Part shown: positions 726 to 8,307 of the stretch, piece by piece
Position numbering within the stretch: the stretch's first letter is position 1
Layout of the letters: each line of letters opens with the position of its first letter
Position numbers and translations under genes: made by a program
Notes under the pieces: generated by a model
Database searches by the model: none
Seen by the model: the letters and a program-made list of their open reading frames with translations, nothing else
What the model was told of the DNA's origin: nothing
NCBI GenBank assembly: GCA_016699425.1
Contig: CP064975.1
Span: 1,056,942-1,120,941, forward strand
Origin: Candidatus Moraniibacteriota bacterium
GTDB lineage: Bacteria; Patescibacteriota; Minisyncoccia; Moranbacterales; UBA1568
DNA length: 64,000 nt
Direction: 5' to 3'

Positions 726-945
726 TGTCCACCCTTAGTTCGACTCCGTTTAGGGGTAATAAAAAACAAGGCTCTGGTGAGCCTTGTTATTAGCTGAGCG
801 GGTAACGGGAGTTCCGCATCGTTCATTCGCCGTCACTCATTCACTCTTTGCCCGGGGTGGCGCCAAATGCTCATTTGTTCGCATCCGTCGACACTCGTCA
901 TCGTTTCCTTCCTGCTGAAAGGAAACTCGTCTTGTTCCCACCCGT
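726..945. repeat. left copy of a 220-bp direct repeat bounding the AT-rich island; contains a 19-nt copy of the tRNA-Gly 3' end (801-819)
   Basis: Positions 788-945 are 100% identical to 5332-5489 (158 bp). Positions 726-787 are ~75% identical to 5270-5331. The embedded CTGAGCGGGTAACGGGAGT equals the 3' 19 nt of the tRNA-Gly gene at 5493-5564. Confidence 0.85.
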
Positions 946-970
946 TCGACTCCCTATCAACCCAAGAAAT

Positions 971-1006
971 AAAACAAGCGCCCGATCGGACGCTTGTTTT
1001 ATTTTT
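971..1006 (-). terminator. rho-independent terminator-like hairpin downstream of the DUF4238 gene
   Basis: AAAACAAGCG/CGCTTGTTTT 10-bp stem with U-rich flanks on both strands. Confidence 0.5.
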
Positions 1007-1037
1007 GAGCTGGCTAGTACAGACGGTTAGAACCAGC
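996..1037. repeat. copy B of the ~35-bp gene-3'-end motif (see 104-151)
   Basis: GAGCTGGCTAGTACAGACGGTTAGAACC, directly downstream of the DUF4238 gene stop. Confidence 0.6.
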
Positions 1038-1066
1038 ATCTCTGATTAATATCGCTTTTTCTTCTG

Positions 1067-2194
1067 TCACTGGATTTTCCAATATGAGTCAATTGGAGCT
1101 TCAATGGCCTTAGCGCCTCGAATGACATATCTCTCATAGTTTTTATTATCAATTTGAACAAATGGGTATGGTCCTTGAAATGTTGCTACTAAACTGTTCC
1201 ACCAGGCACTATAGTAGTAGTGACACTTTTTATACTTTTCACCGCTTCCACATAAACACAAGTCATTTCTACCACACGTAAAGTATTCTGGTGTTACATG
1301 ATGCTTGAATGATTTCCAGAAACGCTTATCTTGTTCGTACCAAAACACTTCTTTTTTTCGAGTAAAGCTCCAGTCTTTGGAAAAAACTTCTGAAGGAAAA
1401 CTCGTTTGAAACACTAACTTTGATTTCTCGCACACAGATTTTTTCTTTCCTAAGCACTTCCTATACGAAGAATTAACAATCACAGCATTTATTGCCTGAA
1501 GTGCCTCTCCATGTACATCATTTATACTATTTTCAACAAAAATATCATTTGTATCCGTATTCCAAAGAACAAAGTAATACTCCGAACTAATCGGAATCAG
1601 AATAACAGTTTCCCTAAGACCAATATTTCTATTTGACACTTGTACAAGCTGACTCTTAACACCTAAAGCAGCTGTAGAAATATACTGATCACTTAAAAGA
1701 AACTCTCCCTCAAGACTTCTTATTATAGCGGTTTTATAGCATGCATTAACCGTTTCTGCTAATAACTCAATGTAGGATTCGTCTAAAATATTTTTTAAAA
1801 GAAGGGCTATCTTATGTTCAGAATCCCTAAAAGAGAACTCGGTCAATAAAGCGTTACTTCTATAGTAGTTCTTAATAAAAAGAGTCATATTCTCACTGAA
1901 CCAATTCTTTACCTCAGAAAACTCACTGGATCCAACTTCAAGACCTTGAATATACTCCAATGTTTTTTTAATAACTTCTGGCAATTTACTATCAACTTCG
2001 CGTCCTAGAAAGTTTTCAACAGCATTCGGTTCTAACTGAGCGTCCTCATAGACGTACATCTCACTCATTGCGTCATTAGGAGTCGTTGCATAGGAGTTGT
2101 TATTTTTCCCAACTAAAAACTCAAAAAATTTTCCGTCATTATCGATAAAGTGAGCAAGTAATTTACGGCTTATGTAATGCTGTTTTTTTACCAT
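1067..2194 (-). CDS. DUF4238-like protein with C-terminal SEC-C metal-binding motif (375 aa)
   Basis: N-terminal HYISRKLLAHF resembles the DUF4238 signature. C-terminal CLCGSGEKYKKCH matches the SEC-C CxCxSGxKxKxCH pattern. Very AT-rich coding sequence compared with flanking DNA. Ends in TGA. Confidence 0.55.
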   Translation of the reverse strand: MVKKQHYISRKLLAHFIDNDGKFFEFLVGKNNNSYATTPNDAMSEMYVYEDAQLEPNAVENFLGREVDSKLPEVIKKTLEYIQGLEVGSSEFSEVKNWFSENMTLFIKNYYRSNALLTEFSFRDSEHKIALLLKNILDESYIELLAETVNACYKTAIIRSLEGEFLLSDQYISTAALGVKSQLVQVSNRNIGLRETVILIPISSEYYFVLWNTDTNDIFVENSINDVHGEALQAINAVIVNSSYRKCLGKKKSVCEKSKLVFQTSFPSEVFSKDWSFTRKKEVFWYEQDKRFWKSFKHHVTPEYFTCGRNDLCLCGSGEKYKKCHYYYSAWWNSLVATFQGPYPFVQIDNKNYERYVIRGAKAIEAPIDSYWKIQ

Positions 2195-2336
2195 ATGTAA
2201 TACACACTAACTGAAACTCAGATAAATTAAGAGCCAGGAATTAAACCGCGTCATTTACCACGGGACACAGTATTTTTAAGTTTATAAGTAGAGCAATCCT
2301 TTCCTAGGCCCCTTCCTTGCTTTCTCGCTCCTGTGA

Positions 2337-2825
2337 CTAACTTTTAATAGATTCAACTCGTCTCTTAATGTAAGAGGTTTGTTTTCTATACGAAATCAAG
2401 AAAATCACAAGGAGAGAAGCAATTAAGATCCACCATTTGTAGTCTCCAAGAAATGGGACTTTGTAAGATAATAGTTCATACCCCCTCGCTGCCACTAATA
2501 ACACAATAGCCGATACAAACGTACGATACATGTTGTTTGTTTCCAAAAGCACATCAATTTTTGGGTCTTCCTTTGCAGCAATTATGAAGTCGTCATATTC
2601 GGCGAACTTTATGAAGCGTGTCCATCGTAGTAATGGCTCGACGATGAGTGAAGCAAACCTGCTCACGATGAGACCGACAAAGTAGTACACAAATGCAGCA
2701 ATAATCAGATTTTCGTATGTGAGAGAATACGGCGTGAGATGTTCCAGTGCTATAGAGAATAGGACGCCAGGAAATAGATAGTTAAACAGATTATAGGATG
2801 TGATTTTGTCTACGATTTTTTCCAT
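2337..2825 (-). CDS. hypothetical integral membrane protein (162 aa)
   Basis: Several hydrophobic stretches; AT-rich; part of the island. Confidence 0.5.
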   Translation of the reverse strand: MEKIVDKITSYNLFNYLFPGVLFSIALEHLTPYSLTYENLIIAAFVYYFVGLIVSRFASLIVEPLLRWTRFIKFAEYDDFIIAAKEDPKIDVLLETNNMYRTFVSAIVLLVAARGYELLSYKVPFLGDYKWWILIASLLVIFLISYRKQTSYIKRRVESIKS

Positions 2826-2831
2826 ATGGCA

Positions 2832-3884
2832 TTATACTTCCACTTCATTAAAGAACACTTCTGGAGTGAGAGGTCCCCATCCAGGACGCTGAGGTGCGTC
2901 TTCGCTCGGATGACAGATCGCCACTCCTTTTCGAGTAGAGCCCAGACTACAACCTCGTCGTATGAGCGCGTTCACCACCTTACGCGAAGGGTGCTTTGGG
3001 TCACCTTGTAACGGGCATGAAATGAATGCGGGAAGCGGCATAAGCCGATTCAATAAAGTTGGCCCAAGATTACGCTTGCTGCCATGATGCGGTACATCTA
3101 AGAAGTCGATTTTGTTCAACGAGACACCTCTTTCTTCAGCGAAGTCAATGGCTCGTCCAAGTCCTTCTTTACCCGCATCACCAGTGAACAAGAAGCGTTT
3201 CCCATCTACTACGAGCAGAAGTACGAGGCAGGAGTTATTCTCAGGACATGTATCGGGATAATCATCCGACAGGGTTTCGATGTGGAGCGCCTCGGCGACC
3301 CAGCTAACCGCCTCTTTCACGGCTCCGATGAATTGCTCTATTTTGTGCTCTTCTTTTACCTCTGGCGTTACACCAAAGTTGGCGAGTAGGAGTTGATAAT
3401 ACTCTTTGGTAGGACCAAGAACATACAGACCGTCATGTATTTCCTCGCCCGCAAACGGCTGAACAATCGGTATTCCTTTCTCGCTGGCAAGATCGGTAAG
3501 AGTGGAGAGTGTCCCAAGTGATTTCTCGAGATATTTTTTCAGCCCCTCCTGCGTTACTGTTGTGTTCGTCATCTTCTGAATAGTCTTTGTGTAGTCCCAA
3601 GGACAATGGACGATTAACTTGCCAACGGTTAGGCCCTCAAGAACTTCAGACAAGCCAGATATATGGTCATTGTGGAGATGCGAAGCAATAACGGCATCTA
3701 CGAAGAGTGTACCGTAATGCGTTTTGACATGTTCAACAAGCGCCTTGCCTGACTCTCTGGTTCCGCCATCTATGACGATGACGTGTTGTGTTTGTGGAGA
3801 GCTAAAGTCTCCGTACCGAATTGCAATCGCGTCTCCTCCTTTTTTTCCAACCCCTACGGGAATGTAATCTACTTGGTGTGCCAT
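2832..3884 (-). CDS. metallo-beta-lactamase-fold hydrolase (350 aa)
   Basis: HLHNDH (HxHxDH) zinc-binding motif followed downstream by conserved Asp/His residues. Confidence 0.65.
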   Translation of the reverse strand: MAHQVDYIPVGVGKKGGDAIAIRYGDFSSPQTQHVIVIDGGTRESGKALVEHVKTHYGTLFVDAVIASHLHNDHISGLSEVLEGLTVGKLIVHCPWDYTKTIQKMTNTTVTQEGLKKYLEKSLGTLSTLTDLASEKGIPIVQPFAGEEIHDGLYVLGPTKEYYQLLLANFGVTPEVKEEHKIEQFIGAVKEAVSWVAEALHIETLSDDYPDTCPENNSCLVLLLVVDGKRFLFTGDAGKEGLGRAIDFAEERGVSLNKIDFLDVPHHGSKRNLGPTLLNRLMPLPAFISCPLQGDPKHPSRKVVNALIRRGCSLGSTRKGVAICHPSEDAPQRPGWGPLTPEVFFNEVEV

Positions 3885-4041
3885 ACTGCCGCAATAAATT
3901 ATTACTCTGCCACATTAAAGGAAGGGCAGAAATTCCTTTATTGTCCTCTATGGTACGCTTCTTTCTGAAGAAGTCAATAGTAAAAGTGTCAACAAACTGT
4001 CAACTATTGCATTTTGAGGGAATTTATCCTAGTATGGATTC

Positions 4042-4737
4042 ATGGAACACCCTCTTCAAAACAAGCTCCTAGAGCTTTCCCAGCGATACGATCTTAGCCA
4101 GATGGGTCTCCGAGAAATCGGCCGACTCGTAGGAGAAGAACATCCTCAAAAAATCAAATTCCATTTGCGGAAGATCGGGCTTCTGGGAACAGGAAAGCGC
4201 CCCAGACCGAAAAAGAGTCACAGAGTGACAATTCCCCTCTCTCAGAACAAAAAGATTCTTTCAATACCTATTCTTGGGGCAGCAAACTGTGGAGAAGCAA
4301 CAACCCTGGCTGAAGCAAGATTAGATGGGATTTTGCCCGTATCAAGAAAATTAATCCCTGCTCCCCATAGGGACAGAGAATTGTTCGCCGTAAAGGCTTC
4401 TGGGAAATCAATGAATCGTGCAGATTTAGACGGGAAGAGTATTGAGGACGGTGATTTTGTCATAGTCGATAGGGAAGAGATAGATGTAAAAAACGGTGAC
4501 TATGTCCTTTCCATAATTGGTGGTCTCGCTAATATCAAAAAGTACTTTGAAGACAAAGAGCATGATCAAATTGTCTTAGAATCAGAGTCTACGAACTTCT
4601 TTCCTCCTATACATATTCACAGAGAGGACCTGGACAATTACTTTTTAAATGGAAAGGTAGTAAGTGTTATAAAAGCAAGAAAGAAAGTTGAGGAAGAGTA
4701 CTCCGTTGAACCCATACCCAGTTGGGACAACTACTGA
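4042..4737 (+). CDS. LexA/phage CI-like repressor, S24 peptidase family (231 aa)
   Basis: N-terminal LexA-type winged HTH. C-terminal VKASGKSMNRADLDGKSIEDGDFVIVD matches the S24 pattern GDSM..GD..V.D (Ser nucleophile), and a downstream KKY motif supplies the catalytic Lys. Confidence 0.65.
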   Translation: MEHPLQNKLLELSQRYDLSQMGLREIGRLVGEEHPQKIKFHLRKIGLLGTGKRPRPKKSHRVTIPLSQNKKILSIPILGAANCGEATTLAEARLDGILPVSRKLIPAPHRDRELFAVKASGKSMNRADLDGKSIEDGDFVIVDREEIDVKNGDYVLSIIGGLANIKKYFEDKEHDQIVLESESTNFFPPIHIHREDLDNYFLNGKVVSVIKARKKVEEEYSVEPIPSWDNY

Positions 4738-4925
4738 CCTAAAAATTCACCTCTGGACTTGTCCTGGCACGGCCGAGGGATTCAGAATTAGAAAAGTCTA
4801 AAAAGTATACATCCAATCAAAAGTGGCTCCTCTGGGGTCGTTTTTTGATGTCCTGAACTTGTTTTATGTAAATAAAAAAGGCCGTTTCCCGTTCGGGGCG
4901 TACCTCAATCAACCGAATGAAGGAT

Positions 4926-5210
4926 TCAATGTGGATCTGGTTTCAGTCCCTTGATGTACGCAAACCGACGACGTAGCCATCCATCAAGATTCGCCTTCTG
5001 AAGACCGACAGCGTTGCTAACATCCTTCAGCCTCGGATTTGGTCCCGCAACGAGAATCCTCTCGGGAAATGGTACATTAGGAACTCGTCCGAAGTGTCGA
5101 TAATACCCCCAGAAATTCTTATGAAGCGGATACTTCTCGGGGTCGTGAACATTGAGGGCCACAGCCTGATAGATCACAGGCCACCAGTCATGCCAGTCAC
5201 CAGAAATCAT
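4926..5210 (-). CDS. hypothetical protein (94 aa)
   Basis: ORF only; no recognisable motif. Lies at the right edge of the island. Confidence 0.35.
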   Translation of the reverse strand: MISGDWHDWWPVIYQAVALNVHDPEKYPLHKNFWGYYRHFGRVPNVPFPERILVAGPNPRLKDVSNAVGLQKANLDGWLRRRFAYIKGLKPDPH

Positions 5211-5269
5211 GTCATTACTCCTCAGAGGTTTCGTTGAATGACAGTATAAACTACCAAAACTTTAAAGTC

Positions 5270-5489
5270 TTGTCCACCCCTAGTTCGAACGCCCGCCTTG
5301 GGTAAATAATTAAGGCTCGGGTGAGCCTTGATATTAGCTGAGCGGGTAACGGGAGTTCCGCATCGTTCATTCGCCGTCACTCATTCACTCTTTGCCCGGG
5401 GTGGCGCCAAATGCTCATTTGTTCGCATCCGTCGACACTCGTCATCGTTTCCTTCCTGCTGAAAGGAAACTCGTCTTGTTCCCACCCGT
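5270..5489. repeat. right copy of the 220-bp direct repeat; contains a 19-nt tRNA-Gly 3'-end duplicate (5337-5355) and directly abuts the intact tRNA-Gly
   Basis: See 726-945. A hairpin GTTTCCTT/AAGGAAAC lies at 5452-5479. Confidence 0.85.
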
Positions 5490-5492
5490 CTG

Positions 5493-5564
5493 AGCGGGTA
5501 ACGGGAGTCGAACCCGTATCTTGACCTTGGCAAGGTCACATAATAGCCGCTATACGATACCCGC
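5493..5564 (-). tRNA. tRNA-Gly (anticodon GCC)
   Basis: The reverse complement folds as GCGGGTA acceptor, anticodon stem-loop GACC-TTGCCAA-GGTC, GGGTTCGACTCCC T-arm and TACCCGC acceptor 3' strand. Confidence 0.85.
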
Positions 5565-5642
5565 CTACGGCGGGCAGGCCCGCTTTGGCTTTTTTCTGTC
5601 TCACGGACTACTCTAACGCAAAACCTGGCACTCGACAACCTG

Positions 5643-5715
5643 TGGGACTGGATGGATTCGAACCATCGACCAAGCGGTTATGAGCCGCCTGCTCTAACCG
5701 CTGAGCTACAGTCCC
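5643..5715 (-). tRNA. tRNA-Met (anticodon CAT), elongator type; could instead be tRNA-Ile2
   Basis: GGGACTG-TA-GCTCAGCGGTTAGAGC; anticodon loop CTCATAA; T-arm GATGGTTCGAATCCATC; acceptor CAGTCCC-A. The anticodon stem lacks the three G-C pairs of an initiator tRNA. Confidence 0.8.
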
Positions 5716-5741
5716 AGGCGGGAGAATGGGATGAAACCCGG

Positions 5742-5813
5742 TGCCGGGGGGCAGAATTGAACTGCCGACGCAAGGATTTTCAGTCCTTCGCTCTACCACT
5801 GAGCTACCCCGGC
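5742..5813 (-). tRNA. tRNA-Phe (anticodon GAA)
   Basis: GCCGGGG-TA-GCTCAGTGGTAGAGC; anticodon loop CTGAAAA; T-arm GGCAGTTCAATTCTGCC; acceptor CCCCGGC-A. Confidence 0.85.
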
Positions 5814-5882
5814 GAAACATAACTATTATCCCGGAACTACCGAAAAAAGCAATCTTTTTTGCTCTGACTGCCGGCTTTCCGG

Positions 5883-5952
5883 TGGTGGGCAGTAGAGGAC
5901 ACTCGAACCTGTGACCCCCTCGGCTCGCCACGTACCAAAATGACTTGCCTGT
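5883..5952 (-). pseudogene. tRNA-like 3' fragment (degenerate T-arm, acceptor 3' strand ACTGCCC-A-CCA)
   Basis: Reverse complement ends ...ACAGG-TTCGAGTGT-CCTCT-ACTGCCC-A-CCA. There is no anticodon arm. It shares a TTTGGTACG-GGCG-GAGCC block with the 5' fragment at 6044-6114. Confidence 0.5.
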
Positions 5953-6025
5953 GGACGATGCTGGACTCGAACCAGCGGCCCTCTCGGTGTAAACGAGATG
6001 CTCTAACCAACTGAGCTAATCGTCC
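5953..6025 (-). tRNA. tRNA-Val (anticodon TAC)
   Basis: GGACGAT-TA-GCTCAGTTGGTTAGAGC; anticodon stem-loop TCTCG-TTTACAC-CGAGA; T-arm GCTGGTTCGAGTCCAGC; acceptor ATCGTCC-A. Confidence 0.85.
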
Positions 6026-6043
6026 GATTTTAGTACGGGGTGA

Positions 6044-6114
6044 ATAAGCGAGGGCTCCCCGCCCGTACCAAACGGTACGTTCGGGCGGGTAACCAACTGA
6101 GCTAACTGCCCGTC
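6044..6114 (-). pseudogene. tRNA-like 5' fragment (GGGCAGT-TA-GCTC-AGTTGGTTA) with a 32-nt hairpin inserted in the D-loop and no anticodon arm
   Basis: Acceptor 5' strand GGGCAGT is complementary to the ACTGCCC of the 3' fragment at 5883-5952. The inserted hairpin is CCCGCCCGAACGTACC-GTTT-GGTACGGGCGGG. Confidence 0.5.
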
Positions 6115-6180
6115 TCACTATCGTACCGAGGGTCTTCCAAAAAAGAAAGCTGGTCAACCAAGTACCAGCCTTCTTCCATT

Positions 6181-6250
6181 GTGCCCAAGAGAGGACTCGG
6201 TCACGAATAATTTCCAAGGAAATTTTCTCGACCCCACCTCGCGGTCTGCT
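6181..6250 (-). pseudogene. duplicated tRNA-Leu 3' end (19 nt, 6181-6199) followed by a hairpin-bearing insert
   Basis: GTGCCCAAGAGAGGACTCG is identical to 6337-6355 (the 3' end of the intact tRNA-Leu). The adjoining sequence has an AATTTCC/GGAAATT hairpin where the T-loop would be. Confidence 0.6.
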
Positions 6251-6337
6251 TTTGCAGACATCGCTCCGGTTTTCTCCTCCTCACACAAGCCAAGCAGTTG
6301 GCTTGTTCCTTGTTCTCAAACTCACTCCGTTCCTTTG

Positions 6338-6421
6338 TGCCCAAGAGAGGACTCGAACCTCCAATCCCTTGCGGGAACTAGCACCTCAAGCTAGCGCGTA
6401 TACCAATTCCGCCACCTGGGC
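6338..6421 (-). tRNA. tRNA-Leu (anticodon GAG), long variable arm
   Basis: GCCCAGG-TG-GCGG-AATTGGTAT-ACGC; anticodon stem-loop CTAGC-TTGAGGT-GCTAG; variable arm TTCCCGCAAGGGAT; T-arm TGGAGGTTCGAGTCCTCT; acceptor CTTGGGC-A. Confidence 0.85.
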
Positions 6422-6426
6422 ATATT

Positions 6427-6666
6427 CTACAGGGACTTCAAAAACTCTCTTCCGACTCCTGACTTAAGATACTTTTCGAATTCTCTTGCTTCGCCTCGCG
6501 TTTGAAATTCTCTGGTGTAGAAAACTTCAAATGGGATACGACTACGATTTGAGGATGTCTTTCCTGCGTTGTGCTGATCAAGTCTCTTTTGTACATCGAA
6601 TGACATCCCAATGTACAAAAAACCATCTTTTTTACTTCTCAGAGCGTAGACAAAATAATTCTTCAT
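6427..6666 (-). CDS. small stand-alone GIY-YIG nuclease-domain protein (79 aa)
   Basis: N-terminal YFVYALRSKKDGFLYIGMSFDVQKRLDQHN fits the GIY-YIG motif with the conserved Arg and His/Asn. Its stop is 5 nt upstream of the tRNA-Leu 5' end. Confidence 0.75.
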   Translation of the reverse strand: MKNYFVYALRSKKDGFLYIGMSFDVQKRLDQHNAGKTSSNRSRIPFEVFYTREFQTRGEAREFEKYLKSGVGREFLKSL

Positions 6667-6679
6667 AACACAGTGACGC

Positions 6680-6753
6680 GCTAGCGCGTATACCCCTGCC
6701 TGCCGGCAGTGTCAGGCCTGTCTACCGACAGGTAGAAATTCCGCCACCTGGGC
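6680..6753 (-). pseudogene. truncated 5' copy of tRNA-Leu (positions 1 to ~31) with a 42-nt palindromic insertion in the D-loop
   Basis: GCCCAGGTGGCGGAATT-[TCTACCTGTCGGTAGACAGGCCTGACACTGCCGGCAGGCAGG]-GGTATACGCGCTAGC, then it diverges. It lies immediately upstream of the GIY-YIG start codon. Confidence 0.7.
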
Positions 6754-6775
6754 ATCTAGCACGGGAACTGCATCG

Positions 6776-7240
6776 TTATTCTGACTTCGCTTCCGTCGGC
6801 GTTTCTTCTGCGCTTGCTGTAGCGGCTGCCTGTACTTCTTTCACGACGTCCTGCACATCCTGGCCCGCCTTGCCGATTTCGAACGGGACCTCTTTCAATT
6901 TCTTGCCGATGACCTTAGCACTCTTGGTCCGGACAAAATACAGTTTACCACGACGGGCTTTGGTCCGCTTCATAAGTTCAATCGACTCCACCTGCGAGGA
7001 AAGCAGTGGGAAAATGATTTCGACACCAATACCGGAAGAGACCTTGCGGACAGTCACGGTCTGAGATGAGCTCTGGCCACCCTTGATCGCGATGACCATA
7101 CCCTGGAACATCTGAATACGAGTCTTCTCGCCTTCCTTGATCTTGCGACGCACCTTCACCACGTCTCCGGCTTGGAGCTCAGGGAGATCAGTCCGCGCGG
7201 CGCGAAGGTTGTTGTTGAATTCGACGAGTTTCTGGTGCAT
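6776..7240 (-). CDS. rplS: 50S ribosomal protein L19 with an acidic C-terminal extension
   Basis: GDVVKVRRKIKEGEKTRIQMFQGMVIAIKGG matches the L19 core. Confidence 0.85.
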   Translation of the reverse strand: MHQKLVEFNNNLRAARTDLPELQAGDVVKVRRKIKEGEKTRIQMFQGMVIAIKGGQSSSQTVTVRKVSSGIGVEIIFPLLSSQVESIELMKRTKARRGKLYFVRTKSAKVIGKKLKEVPFEIGKAGQDVQDVVKEVQAAATASAEETPTEAKSE

Positions 7241-7326
7241 AGCTGTGGTATTTTCCCAAATCAGAATCTAATCACAGAGTAGAGTAATAAAGAAGAAGCC
7301 TTGTTTCAAACGCACAAAAGGCTTCA

Positions 7327-8307
7327 TCAAGCGTTCCAATCATAGCCCCTTCCTGCTTCGGCGTCAAGCATTTTTAGTGTATCCCGGAAATAGCGGGGGA
7401 GCGGCGCTTCATAACGATACTTGTGTCGGCCCAGCTGGAAACGCAGCTCGGCCGCATGCAGGAGCTGAAACGGCGGTTTCAGAGTGTCCCGGTGATGCTC
7501 TTTGAAGCGATAGAGTCGATCACCCACAATCGGGTGGCCGAGAACTGATAGGTGAACCCGGATTTGATGCGTCCGGCCAGTTTTTGGCTTTACAGAGACA
7601 TAATCATACCCTGTATAACGTGTGCGTAAAGCGTATTCTGTCACCGCTTCTCGGAGCTCCCCGCCGAATTCCCGCTTTCCAGCTGGGACCGACCGCTTTT
7701 TCTCACCCTTCACGCGGCCGATAGGGAGATTGATACTCCCGCTTGGCTCAGACAGATTACCGTGTACCAGAGCAAAATACGTCTTTTCAATCTGGCGTTC
7801 CTGAAAAAGCTTCTTTAGAGCCTTAAACGCTTTCGGTGTCTTGGCGATGAGGACAAGTCCTGAAGTGTCCTTGTCCAATCGATGAACCATGCCGGGCCGC
7901 TTTTCTTCCTCCCCAATCCCCATAATCTGTGGATAAGTCGTGGATATCCAGTCAGTTACCGTTAATTGGCGCAAATTCCCCGCTGGATGCATCGCGATAC
8001 CTGCTGGCTTTGAGAGGACGAGGAAGGCTTCGGTCTCAGCGATAACGGTTGGCTTCAGGGAAGCGGCTAATTCTTCGGTATTATTTTGTTGCTTCGTCAG
8101 CCTCATTCCGTCCAGATGCACTACCATGCCTGGTTTCAGCCGGAGTCCCGGTCGTATAATCAACTTTCCGGCAATCGTCACTGAATCAGACGCAATCAGT
8201 GTTTGCACCACTGGACGGGTGAGGTCAGCCCGGGCCTCCACGAGAAAATGATCGAGGCGCCAACCATTATGTTTCTCCTTTACAAAAAAGGTGATTCGCT
8301 GGTCCAT
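7327..8307 (-). CDS. rluD: RluA-family 23S rRNA pseudouridine synthase (RluD-like) with N-terminal S4 domain
   Basis: HRLDKDTSGLVL catalytic-Asp motif; N-terminal S4-like region. Confidence 0.8.
   Translation of the reverse strand: MDQRITFFVKEKHNGWRLDHFLVEARADLTRPVVQTLIASDSVTIAGKLIIRPGLRLKPGMVVHLDGMRLTKQQNNTEELAASLKPTVIAETEAFLVLSKPAGIAMHPAGNLRQLTVTDWISTTYPQIMGIGEEEKRPGMVHRLDKDTSGLVLIAKTPKAFKALKKLFQERQIEKTYFALVHGNLSEPSGSINLPIGRVKGEKKRSVPAGKREFGGELREAVTEYALRTRYTGYDYVSVKPKTGRTHQIRVHLSVLGHPIVGDRLYRFKEHHRDTLKPPFQLLHAAELRFQLGRHKYRYEAPLPRYFRDTLKMLDAEAGRGYDWNA

Follow-up and report, generated by a model that had tools for sequence, protein, structure and literature searches.

Behind tRNA-Leu and tRNA-Gly in a tRNA cluster of Candidatus Moraniibacteriota (Moranbacteria, CPR), an ultra-small bacterium, a conserved structured module occupies the T-loop of a reduced tRNA copy and is followed by a terminator. 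We call the module E, with type E1 behind tRNA-Leu and type E2 behind tRNA-Gly. The 19-26-nt copy of the tRNA 3' end found in each supplies the 3' strand of a helix that resembles a T-stem and acceptor and closes off a conserved three-way junction, and the partner strand of this copy lies inside E and changes with the tRNA. E elements are a large, strongly co-varying structured family (at least 130 copies, two scaffold types, unmatched in Rfam 15) that is associated one-to-one with tRNA genes of many identities in CPR bacteria, and that was absent from the literature we searched.

A tRNA-like RNA is, in our view, the most likely reading of E. In the explanation that best accounts for the tRNA remnants in the cluster, each belongs to a second copy of a neighbouring tRNA gene, disabled and carrying a non-tRNA module, and is the tRNA-derived part of that copy. 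To this overall account, which combines the operon, E modules as tRNA-like RNA, and a set of secondary events, we give an even chance.

The tRNA cluster and its remnants

The window (the whole stretch of DNA that was analysed, 64,000 nucleotides) contains an rplS–tRNA(Leu-Val-Phe-Met-Gly) operon that a synteny comparison found to be kept in relatives. All five tRNAs of the cluster lie on the minus strand:

6337-6421, minus strand, intact tRNA-Leu(GAG) (ARAGORN; Rfam RF00005, 53 bits)
5951-6025, minus strand, intact tRNA-Val(TAC), second allele, GGACGAU type (ARAGORN)
5740-5813, minus strand, tRNA-Phe
5642-5715, minus strand, tRNA-Met
5492-5564, minus strand, intact tRNA-Gly(GCC) (ARAGORN; Rfam)

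The tRNA-Leu(GAG) sequence is the same in every Moranbacteria locus compared. The first-pass annotation had described the cluster as a mosaic of intact tRNAs and tRNA remnants, a description that is borne out: a repeat comparison recovered all of the repeats reported around the intact tRNAs, these far exceed the length expected by chance in 1.6 kb, and they are also found in related genomes. Only the five intact genes were returned by ARAGORN in its default, -i and -ps runs and by Rfam RF00005 at E<=10. None of the four fragments was predicted as a tRNA or an intron-containing tRNA by the intron and pseudogene options of ARAGORN or by Rfam at E<=10, so they do not read as intact genes interrupted by introns. 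ARAGORN made no tmRNA call in the window or the segment.

Group I introns occur in tRNA genes of Patescibacteria (PMC13011429), and here they share both lineage and operon with E; RF00028 introns are found in tRNA-Phe and tRNA-Met of this cluster in sister genomes (loci L002, L007 and L014). Rfam at E<=10 gave no RF00028 match at positions 4500-7500 of the window, and E differs from these introns in being about 135 nt long, in lying in disabled copies and in its position, which is mostly at the T-loop.

A folded element behind tRNA-Leu

The following features lie downstream of tRNA-Leu:

6181-6336, minus strand, E1, type-1 structured element directly 3' of tRNA-Leu (covariance model R1, 161.5 bits)
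6174-6199, minus strand, 26-nt copy that takes in the 3' end of tRNA-Leu and 7 nt of trailer, a direct repeat of 6330-6355 (25/26)
6137-6176, minus strand, terminator-like hairpin and T-run after E1, read from the sequence, GAAGGCUGGUACUUGGUUGACCAGCUUUCUUUUUU

E1 is built of hairpin 1, a GAGGAG segment inside the element, a core that forms a three-way junction and has the motifs GCCGGAGC...GAGGUGGGGUCGAGA...UUCGUGACC, and then a copy of tRNA-Leu nt 57-76. The minimum free energy (MFE) fold of the window copy is the consensus fold (z=-2.96; 0 of 200 shuffles fold equally well), and the 26-nt Leu copy is the 3' strand of its closing helix. The duplicate of the tRNA-Leu 3' end reported in the first-pass annotation is real but longer than the 19 bp given for it, as the repeat spans 26 nt and extends 7 nt beyond the tRNA end; the hairpin noticed beside it at the position of a T-loop is present as hairpin 3 of the E1 fold. 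The terminator scan did not list the hairpin at 6137-6176 because its loop exceeds 8 nt. In the related locus L003, the repeat of the Leu 3' end is present once and E1 is absent.

Seven Moranbacteria copies of E1 share a 41-pair consensus in which 16 pairs show compensatory changes, and among these copies the internal segment (GAGGAC or GAGGGA) co-varies with its counterpart in the tail copy (GUCCUC or UCCCUC). The acceptor part of the tail copy differs from the neighbouring tRNA in L005 and L016.

E1 across CPR metagenomes

A metagenome scan found E1 in at least 120 contigs, a set chosen with a pattern that fixes two core motifs. A same-strand tRNA lies at most 600 nt upstream in 89 of the 122 matches listed, and among these matches the upstream tRNAs cover at least 17 amino-acid identities at a median distance of 152 nt. 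Downstream of UCGUGACC, the E1 sequence repeats the upstream tRNA from nt 57 on, with at most 2/16 mismatches in 49 cases among the matches listed, and an internal antisense strand also pairs with this flank-derived tail. In a subset of E1 the acceptor part of the tail copy has decayed and exact matches run to only 7-15 nt, and one variant has no tail copy at all; the T-stem part alone is clearly constrained. The sequence preceding E is tRNA-derived too, with sense copies of tRNA nt 1-7/10 or about 40-55.

An alignment of 134 copies has 93.9% of its cells paired, compared with 64.5% in shuffles and 33-46% with slid partners, a paired fraction that is inflated by the fitting of this alignment (A3) to the model structure. 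Both sides have changed in 40 of the 41 pairs. On the tRNA-sense strand, G·U combinations number 247 against 78 for A·C, and one G·U pair is invariant. E1 thus shows the conserved fold, compensatory changes and strand-specific G·U pairs by which structured noncoding RNAs are generically recognised, and it is a conserved folded element of about 150 nt that lies next to tRNA genes of many kinds in metagenomes of CPR bacteria. No non-tRNA family of Rfam 15 reached its gathering score or a credible E-value over E, either in the window or in 12 metagenome loci.

Two proposed readings: a tRNA-like RNA or an inserted element

If E is a tRNA-like RNA, it would be transcribed on the tRNA strand, by read-through or together with the tRNA, a point on which its orientation and the downstream terminators bear; its expression is an assumption here, since a terminator often lies between the tRNA and E and there is no room for a separate promoter. 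The transcript would fold in a tRNA-like manner, retaining the acceptor/T-stem minihelix of the neighbouring tRNA, with hairpin 1 standing in for the D and anticodon arms and a core of about 85 nt for the T-loop, and proteins that process or bind tRNA could recognise it. E may have arisen by insertion into tRNA loops after GG(U), and would survive only where an intact tRNA copy stays beside it.

Transcripts that combine partial tRNA architecture with a non-tRNA domain include YrlA (a bacterial Y RNA), the 3' tRNA-like structures of viruses and mascRNA. E likewise joins acceptor-like and T-stem-like helices to a non-tRNA domain, and this partial architecture makes recognition by tRNA enzymes plausible. 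It differs from them in borrowing its stems from its own neighbour tRNA, in having many paralogs per genome, and in having no T-loop or elbow, because the insert occupies the T-loop. None of the tRNA-like families in Rfam matches E.

A more specific proposal, which we offer tentatively and somewhat short of even confidence, is that E1 and E2 are two families of an uncatalogued class of CPR/Patescibacteria noncoding RNAs, "shadow tRNAs", each keeping the minihelix of its neighbour. Equally tentative is the division of labour that would follow, in which the minihelix serves as an address or processing handle and the conserved three-way-junction core in place of the T-loop binds a common partner. 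If this were true, a genome would hold many paralogs, one per tRNA species, and these would amount to a tRNA-specific regulatory, quality-control or guide-like system in minimal-genome bacteria. What counts against a single designed RNA is that E cores occur at three different tRNA loops, which looks more like insertion.

The rival that fares best builds on this point. E may be a selfish element that inserts non-autonomously, either like an intron or as a relative of IS200/605 miniatures, and that enters tRNA genes in their single-stranded loops, after GG(T); the fold would then serve the element's own mobility or processing, the tRNA pieces would be insertion flanks, and the intact genes next to it would reflect survivorship. 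We regard this as possible but rather unlikely. The placement of E-like cores speaks for it. They are also found behind 5' tRNA parts that stop in one of three loops (D, anticodon or T), upstream of intact genes and always after GG(T). In L085 and L140, the 3' flank of E resumes the tRNA where the 5' flank ended, as a simple insertion into a partial tRNA copy would. Presence and absence in close relatives with precise repeat boundaries (L003 and the window), the decay of the acceptor part of the tail copy and the fold-back palindromes at truncation points can be read in the same way. Disrupted tRNA genes of archaea, which are split or carry non-canonical introns in the D-, anticodon- and T-loop (at 56/57, for example), have insertions at the same loop positions, 56/57 included; here the host is a bacterium, the interrupted copies lack anticodons or halves and are not predicted as tRNAs, and the likeness lies in the loop positions rather than in a bulge-helix-bulge motif or a splicing endonuclease.

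In the TnpB/IscB omega-RNAs of IS200/605 elements, the guide comes from flanking DNA and follows a scaffold, and the two E families share this scaffold-then-flank logic, with a conserved scaffold of about 100-140 nt followed by 16-24 nt of the adjoining target. In E, however, the would-be guide is paired by an internal antisense segment and would target the cell's own essential tRNA gene, and neither tnpB nor tnpA overlaps or adjoins the element. More generally, no transposase, TnpB or RT ORF overlaps or adjoins any of the 122 E1 copies listed. A same-strand upstream ORF of at least 300 aa is found at 5 of these 122 copies, none of them overlapping E; judged from translations read by eye, without a domain search, four look like housekeeping genes and the fifth is a large serine recombinase gene beside one E1 locus.

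Several further observations argue against this rival. E1 paralogs in the same contig are mostly 40-70% identical, while orthologs in other contigs are closer, so that same-contig copies are, judged by sequence, old paralogs. Identity of this order implies no recent burst of E, and near-identical copies within one contig were mostly not found (best within-contig identity mostly 0.4-0.7). Compensatory changes among orthologous copies at one locus point to long residence under structural constraint. There were zero E1 matches in 2.9 million viral contigs. That both acceptor- and T-stem strands persist around a conserved hairpin in place of the tRNA's middle is likewise not what insertion flanks would suggest.

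If E is an RNA, it would add a new tRNA-mimicking class to a group of organisms in which RNA biology has hardly been explored; if it is a mobile element, it would represent a new way to colonise essential tRNA genes without killing them. Under either reading, E accounts for many of the CPR "tRNA fragments" that annotation pipelines will miscall or ignore, and it is a directly testable target through its transcript ends, RNase P/Z processing and partner proteins.

The tRNA-Gly repeats and the defence island

E2 is a second scaffold with the same plan as E1. The window holds two copies, which bracket an island:

5338-5489, minus strand, E2 copy A, type-2 element fused directly to the tRNA-Gly end (nhmmer match 5487-5339)
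5338-5356, minus strand, 19-nt copy of the tRNA-Gly 3' end that closes E2 copy A
5312-5329, minus strand, terminator-like hairpin with a weak T-tract after E2 copy A (terminator scan)
794-960, minus strand, E2 copy B, with a 5' antisense T-arm segment GGGAGUCGAAC
794-812, minus strand, third Gly 3'-end copy, in E2 copy B
765-788, minus strand, intrinsic-terminator-like hairpin after E2 copy B (terminator scan)
946-5311, no strand assigned, low-GC island of 4.4 kb between two 178-bp repeats
1067-2194, DUF4238/SEC-C gene in the island
2337-2825 and 2832-3884, PDC-M48 candidate defence pair (PDC-M48A/B)
4042-4737, LexA-like S24 peptidase gene in the island
4926-5210, 94-aa ORF in the island

The 19-bp duplicate of the tRNA-Gly 3' end stands as first described (5338-5356 matches 5490-5508 at 100%) and belongs to a 178-bp direct repeat, 5312-5489 and 768-945, of 98.9% identity. 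A terminator hairpin at about 965-1007 precedes E2 copy B and lies directly behind tRNA-Gly in L002 and L003. E2 is also found behind tRNA-Phe and tRNA-Ser, each time ending in the 3' end of its own tRNA. The E2 consensus is weak, and the window E2 folds no better than shuffles (z=-0.9).

With a GC content of 0.41-0.48, compared with about 0.52 in the rest of the window, the 4.4-kb stretch has two of the marks of a genomic island, namely tRNA-3'-end repeats at both ends and atypical composition with accessory cargo. No tyrosine or serine recombinase was found in it by Pfam and PADLOC among all ORFs of at least 94 aa. Other cassettes sit between tRNA-Gly and E2+copy modules in sister genomes, and we suggest that the module was duplicated around the defence island as a secondary event at a hot spot.

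The first-pass annotation had attributed the matching layout at Gly and Leu either to repeated integration and excision at tRNA 3' ends or to a small element that targets tRNA genes. The latter was right, and lies nearer the evidence than integrase scars, one unit being found behind at least 17 kinds of tRNA; the former applies loosely, to the modules that bracket the island and the sister cassettes, and fails for the Gly/Leu layout. As scars, the 3'-end copies would be of attL/attR type, and the intervening 135 nt or so would be an attP arm, or what a deleted island left behind as a cis-mobilisable remnant; we consider this reading improbable. The resemblance to genomic islands at tRNA 3' ends is real, in that an intact tRNA is followed by a distant direct copy of its 3' end and trailer, cargo lies between such copies at tRNA-Gly, and the one serine recombinase gene noted above adjoins an E1 locus. 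However, the approximately 135 nt and the copy form one conserved folded unit, usually with no cargo between tRNA and copy, that serves all of these identities as a single scaffold and includes old paralogs. Its internal segment is complementary to the copy and follows the T-stem of each neighbouring tRNA, and its hairpins carry an RNA-like covariation that the protein-binding arm sites of an integrase would not need. An integrase is missing from the island and from the vicinity of nearly all E copies, and the absence of matches in viral contigs also weighs against scars.

A split tRNA-Val and a GIY-YIG cassette

Apart from E, the cluster shows mobile-DNA biology of an ordinary kind, though in an unusual host: a probably selfish nuclease gene, the replacement of one tRNA allele by another and a defence island beside a tRNA gene. 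The fragments that flank tRNA-Val are as follows:

6039-6111, minus strand, 5' half of an old resident tRNA-Val(TAC), GGGCAGU type (sequence and fold)
5883-5922, minus strand, 3' half of the old tRNA-Val, nt ~39-76 plus CCA

These are the two halves of a resident tRNA-Val split by the second tRNA-Val allele. The 5' half carries a 32-nt D-loop hairpin at 6089-6058 and a mutated anticodon loop, the T-arm of the 3' half, intact in L003, shows decay in the window through a G>C change and an inserted GU, and the acceptor strands GGGCAGU and ACUGCCC pair in the MFE fold. The complementary fragments had thus been recognised correctly, hairpin included, with the corrections that the 5' fragment starts at 6111 rather than 6114 and that the 3' fragment proper is 5922-5883. 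The target duplication proposed for them gives way to the split gene, the resident tRNA-Val being intact in L004, L007, L008, L009 and L011, as it also is in L023. The second allele, nested in the old gene, is flanked by a 14-nt inverted repeat (12/14; 6040-6027 and 5941-5928); in L006 this allele instead lies within the D-loop, and its inverted repeat measures 12 bp. Insertion of the second allele into the resident gene would have left the two pseudogene halves.

Upstream of tRNA-Leu lies a further pair of features:

6680-6753, minus strand, disabled 5' copy of tRNA-Leu (nt 1-17, insert, nt 18-32)
6427-6666, minus strand, GIY-YIG nuclease gene, 79 aa (Pfam PF01541, E=1.7e-16)

The disabled copy matches the intact gene exactly over nt 1-17 (6753-6737) and nt 18-32 (6694-6680), which agrees with the earlier description of nt 1 to about 31 with a palindromic D-loop insert; the insert is a 42-nt double hairpin at 6736-6695, and the copy terminates in the fold-back palindrome ACGCGCUAGCGCGU. 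Its layout and the 20-nt palindrome CCTGCCTGCCGGCAGGCAGG are shared by L006 and L023/L024, and this palindrome occupies different positions in different tRNA fragments. The D-loop hairpins are real and recur in other genomes; they are confined to disabled tRNA copies and form no genome-wide repeat.

Ordinary pseudogene decay through local tandem duplication or slipped repair, with chance palindromes and no element, is very improbable as a general explanation: it is valid for the old tRNA-Val halves, with their damaged T-arm and lost anticodon, and the palindromes at breakpoints would fit repair errors, but it is contradicted for the Gly and Leu 3'-end copies and the Leu 5' copy by an E1 core conserved with massive covariation in at least 130 copies, by the shifting position of the 20-nt palindrome, and by a Leu 5' copy and D-loop palindrome that stayed unchanged while the adjacent GIY-YIG protein fell to 75% identity.

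The GIY-YIG gene lies, as first reported, between the disabled copy and intact tRNA-Leu. It is at the same place in L002, L006 and L023/24 (75-100% amino-acid identity) and absent in L003, L004, L007-L011 and L015-L016, a presence/absence polymorphism among relatives, so that the cassette with its hairpin-interrupted Leu 5' copy is kept in a subclade and missing from sister genomes. In phage T4, the free-standing GIY-YIG homing endonuclease SegB is encoded among clustered tRNA genes (PMC2330249). The gene described here is similarly wedged between tRNA genes, present or absent among relatives, with flanking tRNA sequence duplicated or co-inherited, and is probably a selfish, homing-endonuclease-like gene in the disabled Leu copy. 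It differs from SegB in its cellular host and in encoding only a catalytic domain (residues 3-69 of 79) with no separate DNA-binding domain, so that site-specific homing is putative. Distant homologs of the 79-aa protein are found in unrelated places with no tRNA nearby. The 19 nt upstream of the disabled Leu copy resemble the leader of the intact gene at 12/19 positions (repeat D2).

A mosaic tRNA cluster

Events of at least four kinds at a single hot spot made the window's tRNA cluster a mosaic, and its most interesting component is a widespread family of tRNA-linked structured elements, absent from Rfam 15 and undescribed in the literature searched. Five tRNA genes are called by ARAGORN and by Rfam (RF00005, 53-74 bits), and in the direction of transcription they follow rplS and a pseudouridine synthase gene.

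Genes and elements of the cluster (window coordinates)
5492-5564, minus strand, tRNA-Gly
5642-5715, minus strand, tRNA-Met
5740-5813, minus strand, tRNA-Phe
5951-6025, minus strand, tRNA-Val
6181-6336, structured element E1, directly 3' of tRNA-Leu
6337-6421, minus strand, tRNA-Leu(GAG)
6427-6666, GIY-YIG ORF of 79 aa, a catalytic domain and nothing else
6776-7240, rplS, transcriptionally upstream of the tRNA cluster

A search with the rplS protein found the order rplS–Leu–Val–Phe–Met–Gly in 14 genomes labelled Candidatus Moraniibacteriota or Moranbacteria, a CPR lineage. The spacers between tRNA genes vary strongly in length and content among these loci, so filled and empty versions of each insertion are available for comparison. 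The two closest, L002 (GCA_049662085.1) and L003, are 95-97% identical to the window over long stretches, and each departs from it in at least one of the features at issue.

The first-pass annotation had described intact tRNAs interspersed with four tRNA remnants, and this mosaic is confirmed. The 19-bp repeat of the tRNA-Gly 3' end is present (5338-5356 = 5490-5508), the corresponding repeat at tRNA-Leu is actually 26 nt long (6174-6199 versus 6330-6355, 25/26 identical), the 5' copy of tRNA-Leu occupies 6753-6737 and 6694-6680 with a 42-nt insert separating both parts, and head and tail fragments of a further tRNA lie on both sides of tRNA-Val. With intron and pseudogene options on, none of the fragments was called by ARAGORN (-i, -ps) or Rfam, and a reading as intron-containing or pseudo-tRNAs was rejected.

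Rfam group I intron models had no match at window positions 4500-7500 (E <= 10), where tRNA-Phe and tRNA-Met are intron-free. Sister operons do carry such introns (RF00028), in tRNA-Phe of L002 (4818-5116) and splitting tRNA-Met in L007 (1800-2013) and L014 (9371-9579), and ARAGORN misses these interrupted genes; a survey of group I introns surfaced in the literature search (PMC13011429).

A structured element 3' of tRNA-Leu

In L003, tRNA-Leu runs straight into the sequence that in the window comes after the second repeat copy, so the window has 156 nt more, delimited by the 26-nt repeat. The same unit, E1, lies 3' of tRNA-Leu in L002, L005, L012 and L016, among which rplS identity to the window drops to 57%, and a homologous unit lies 3' of tRNA-Val in L004, L005 and L009, each time closing with a copy of the 3' end of the tRNA it adjoins (e.g., GAAUCCCUCAGCACGCAC in L005). 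The element is lost or gained cleanly among relatives.

The RNAalifold consensus of seven E1 copies contains 41 pairs, 16 of them with compensatory changes, arranged as a hairpin 1 and a closing helix around a three-way junction with two arms. This closing helix uses the copy of the tRNA end: an internal GAGGAC pairs with GUCCUC of the copy, and in L005 both strands are altered jointly to GAGGGA/UCCCUC. The minimum-energy fold of the window copy is the consensus itself (-52.7 kcal/mol, z = -2.96, 0/200 shuffles as good), and the hairpin reported earlier where a T-loop would be is present as arm hairpin 3 of this fold. A AACUGCUU / ACUGC motif recurs in the loop of hairpin 1 (window 6294-6287 and many loci) next to different tRNAs, and also in the terminator-like hairpin of an E1 variant that lacks the tRNA-end copy; this recurrence suggests a specific contact.

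Distribution and covariation of E1

Metagenome contigs were scanned by two core motifs, GAGGYRGGGUCGAGA ... UCGUGACC, which occur together in at least 120 contigs among the matches listed. Among these listed matches, 89/122 have a same-strand tRNA within 600 nt upstream and many of the others lie at contig ends, the upstream tRNAs represent at least 17 amino-acid identities, and a median of 152 nt separates the tRNA end from the end of UCGUGACC. Beyond that motif comes a repeat of the upstream tRNA that begins at T-loop nt 57, reaches the tRNA end and often continues into the trailer or terminator; exact identity frequently extends over 18-24 nt or more, and in at least 49 cases among the matches listed the first 16 nt match the tRNA at two mismatches or fewer. 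Copies of E1 within one contig are mostly 40-70% identical and orthologous copies in other contigs are closer, and this low within-contig identity marks them as old residents, not a recent burst. E adjoins many tRNA species and is old within genomes. One E1-bearing contig encodes a protein whose homologs are named Saccharibacteria/Patescibacteria, so the family reaches beyond Moranbacteria within the CPR.

With a covariance model made from the Moranbacteria copies, one E1 is detected in the window and 134 in 100 metagenome loci. In the 134-copy alignment, standard pairs make up 93.9% of cells, compared with 64.5% when shuffled and 33-46% when partners are slid; fitting the alignment to the model flatters the paired fraction, but the margin over both controls is still large. 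Changes on both sides occur in 40/41 pairs. On the tRNA-sense strand there are 247 G·U against 78 A·C cells, with one G·U pair nearly invariant, an excess that points to the tRNA-sense strand as the one likely to fold. The conserved fold of E lies on the tRNA strand.

E has no match to any Rfam 15 family, whether in the window or at 12 metagenome loci, and known RNAs such as ribozymes, tmRNA, Y RNA and omega-RNA motifs were rejected on that ground; the literature searched gave no description of E, only the intron survey and a paper on phage T4 SegB (PMC2330249) surfacing. A hammerhead-like reading of the E1 core (GAAA ... GUC) was dropped on inspection since the CUGAUGA box did not fit, and an analogy with integron attC sites was rejected by inspection only (no intI, and a core that does not fit GTTRRRY).

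E as an apparent reduced tRNA copy

Ahead of the E core lie sense copies of the neighbouring tRNA, nt 1-7/10 in one subtype and approximately nt 40-55 in another, so the unit can be read as a duplicate of the tRNA in reduced form, in which a core of approximately 85 nt replaces the T-loop and the D and anticodon arms have become hairpin 1 or been lost. On the reading we favour, E would be an RNA that retains the acceptor/T-stem minihelix of its neighbour, and this minihelix could allow it to be processed or bound like a tRNA while the core serves a common function.

The main rival is that E is a selfish insertion targeting tRNA loops, with a fold that serves only itself. E-like cores also stand 3' of the 5' part of a tRNA, which breaks off in the D-loop in L079 and L045, in the anticodon loop in L046 and L070 and in the T-stem in L085 and L140; GG(U) always precedes the junction, and an intact copy of that tRNA lies just downstream of the unit. 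These three positions favour an insertion, as do loci where the acceptor part of the copy has decayed and the E1 variant without any copy. In that variant (L033, L036, L055, L057, L078, L082, L086, L098, L109, L115, L125 and L128), a base that matches the discriminator of the neighbouring tRNA comes after UCGUGACC (A for Arg, Ala and Val; C for His), and CA or CCA comes next; from its sequence, the GGUCGAG/CUCGUGACC arm resembles an acceptor stem with a 3' end like that of a tRNA. Four of the five window tRNA genes are likewise followed by CA(A/G) and not by an encoded CCA (5489-5491, 5639-5641, 5948-5950, 6334-6336), an N73-CA pattern common to these 3' flanks and the copy-less variant.

Plain decay of tRNA duplicates is a weaker rival, accounting only for the halves of a resident tRNA-Val described below. 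It is unlikely that E represents integrase scars, as E has neither integrase nor cargo, its pairs covary, and its internal antisense strand follows the tRNA. A phage attP was rejected because the two-motif pattern had no match in 2.9 million viral contigs, and the end of an IS with TnpB because no such ORFs were found. The one large upstream ORF searched, in L084, is a large serine recombinase gene (3671-5305; PF00239/PF07508/PF13408; homologs named Saccharibacteria/Patescibacteria) directly upstream of tRNA-Val and then E1, which we treat as a single coincidence.

A second scaffold and cassette exchange at tRNA-Gly

The element 3' of tRNA-Gly, E2, is another scaffold on the plan of E1: an antisense T-arm segment (GGGAGUCGAAC), a body, a tRNA-end copy (CUCCCGUUACCCGCUC) and a terminator. 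Its profile also matches 3' of tRNA-Phe (L127, L039, L012) and tRNA-Ser (L145), each closing with its own tRNA's 3' end. The E2 consensus fold is weak and the window copy folds no better than shuffles (z = -0.9); that E2 is structured would follow mainly from its likeness to E1.

The 178-bp segment 5312-5489 (E2, copy and terminator) is repeated at 768-945 with 98.9% identity, and the 4.4 kb separating the two (946-5311) have a GC content of 0.41-0.48 versus about 0.52. This island holds the following genes, and no recombinase or integrase gene was found in it.

Genes of the island
1067-2194, DUF4238/SEC-C protein
2337-2825, PDC-M48 A, PADLOC candidate defence system (the pair at E = 2.7e-62 and 3.1e-78)
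2832-3884, PDC-M48 B, PADLOC candidate defence system
4042-4737, LexA-like S24 peptidase
an ORF of 94 aa

At the same locus, L002 and L003 have tRNA-Gly, a terminator, E2 with its copy, a 221-aa ORF and a second E2 with copy; in L023 a 210-aa ORF separates tRNA-Gly from the E2 module, and in L007 two modules lie 2 kb apart. This differing content indicates that cassettes are exchanged between E2-plus-copy modules. The earlier interpretation, repeated integration and excision at tRNA 3' ends, is partly supported, standing as cassette exchange at tRNA-Gly and unlikely as integrase scars for E itself. The agent may be a recombinase acting on the modules or plain homologous recombination via the repeats.

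The motif GUUCUAACCGU(C/G)UGUAC(U/C)AGCCAGCUCAA occurs twice on the minus strand of the window (1030-995 and 140-110), and the GCUCA end of the first copy coincides exactly with the point at which the tRNA-Gly end meets the terminator in L002; this end may be a further recombination junction. A promoter-like TGGACA-N17-TATTAT (with TG) lies at 731-703 on the minus strand directly downstream of E2, copy and terminator, is conserved after E2 in L004, L007 and L016, and has a diverged counterpart after E2 copy A (about 5275-5245).

A GIY-YIG cassette in tRNA-Leu

The GIY-YIG protein is identical at the same site in L002 and has homologs of 75-78% identity there in L006 and L023/L024. In L003, L007, L011 and others a plain leader precedes tRNA-Leu, and the L011 leader matches the sequence ahead of the window's disabled Leu copy. 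Occupied genomes all share one layout: Leu nt 1-17, a GC-rich D-loop palindrome (CCTGCCTGCCGGCAGGCAGG in L006 and L023, a 42-nt two-hairpin form in the window and L002), Leu nt 18 to about 31, a short fold-back palindrome, the ORF and the intact gene, whose leader overlaps the last ORF codons and is similar to the outer leader at 12/19 positions. On sequence grounds, this fits a free-standing, homing-endonuclease-like gene that would have entered tRNA-Leu with a partial duplication sparing one working copy. The 79-aa protein is without a DNA-binding domain. A GIY-YIG gene within a tRNA cluster has a precedent in phage T4 SegB (PMC2330249).

More remote homologs occupy unrelated intergenic sites, and a general link of the family to tRNA genes was rejected because distant homologs lie 5' of leuS and within a type I R-M operon, where no tRNA is near. 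One of 48% identity lies immediately upstream of the leucyl-tRNA synthetase gene on a Paceibacterota contig (L025, 2501-2755), which may be coincidence. The disabled Leu copy of L006, a MAG, contains an N run (assembly gap, ~2800-2810), so such repeats probably break short-read assemblies.

A tRNA-Val within a tRNA-Val

The further tRNA, previously seen as two halves, is the resident tRNA-Val(TAC) allele (GGGCAGUUAGCUCAGUUGGUUAGAGCACCUCGUUUACACCGAGGGGGUCAGAGGUUCGAGUCCUCUACUGCCCA), which is intact in L004, L007, L008, L009, L011 and L023. The window, L002 and L003 have it interrupted near nt 39/40 by an insert of about 115 nt comprising a complete second-allele tRNA-Val (GGACGAU type) between a 14-nt inverted repeat (12/14); this second allele is the only Val gene in L010 and L012. 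The shared 20-nt block once read as consistent with a target duplication does exist, as an arm of the 32-nt hairpin in the resident D-loop that resembles the inverted repeat around the second allele. L006 differs in that the second allele lies within the D-loop and the 20-nt palindrome within the anticodon loop.

In the window the resident gene has lost its anticodon and its T-arm is damaged (intact in L003), and we judge it to be a pseudogene there. Its acceptor strands pair, with an apparently compensated acceptor in L002, as would suit a working tRNA carrying the second in an anticodon-loop intron; we reject this reading given the mutated anticodon loop, the decayed T-arm and the intact allele elsewhere.

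D-loop hairpins and disabled 5' copies

GC-rich hairpins of the form CCYGCC...GGCRGG occupy the D-loops of disabled 5' copies of tRNA-Leu (window, L002, L006, L012, L023), Phe (L023), Trp (L038) and Cys (L122), and of the resident tRNA-Val. In L002 and L003, one palindrome copy forms a hairpin within an E2 element, and the 20-nt form occurs only in tRNA fragments of L006, L023 and L024. A genome-wide REP-like repeat was considered and rejected, as the 20-nt palindrome has no copy in the 64-kb window at up to three mismatches and inverted repeats elsewhere in the window are unrelated to it. We infer that these hairpins are left over from E-type inserts in tRNA loops or are related to them. At several truncation points the sequence runs on as the reverse complement of the preceding bases, e.g., ACGCGCUAGC/GCGU in the window, UGUGGU/ACCACA in L070 and AAUUCCCGU/CGCGGAAUU in L140 (slash at the fold-back point), which suggests fold-back repair at breaks.

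Disabled 5' copies are also found for Phe, Trp, Cys, Lys and Pro, 60-130 nt ahead of their intact genes, in L023 (~3035-3080), L038, L122, L139 and L041/L090, several with a GC-rich D-loop hairpin. Exact duplicates of the first 14 nt of a tRNA number 22 among the 320 tRNAs of the fetched loci.
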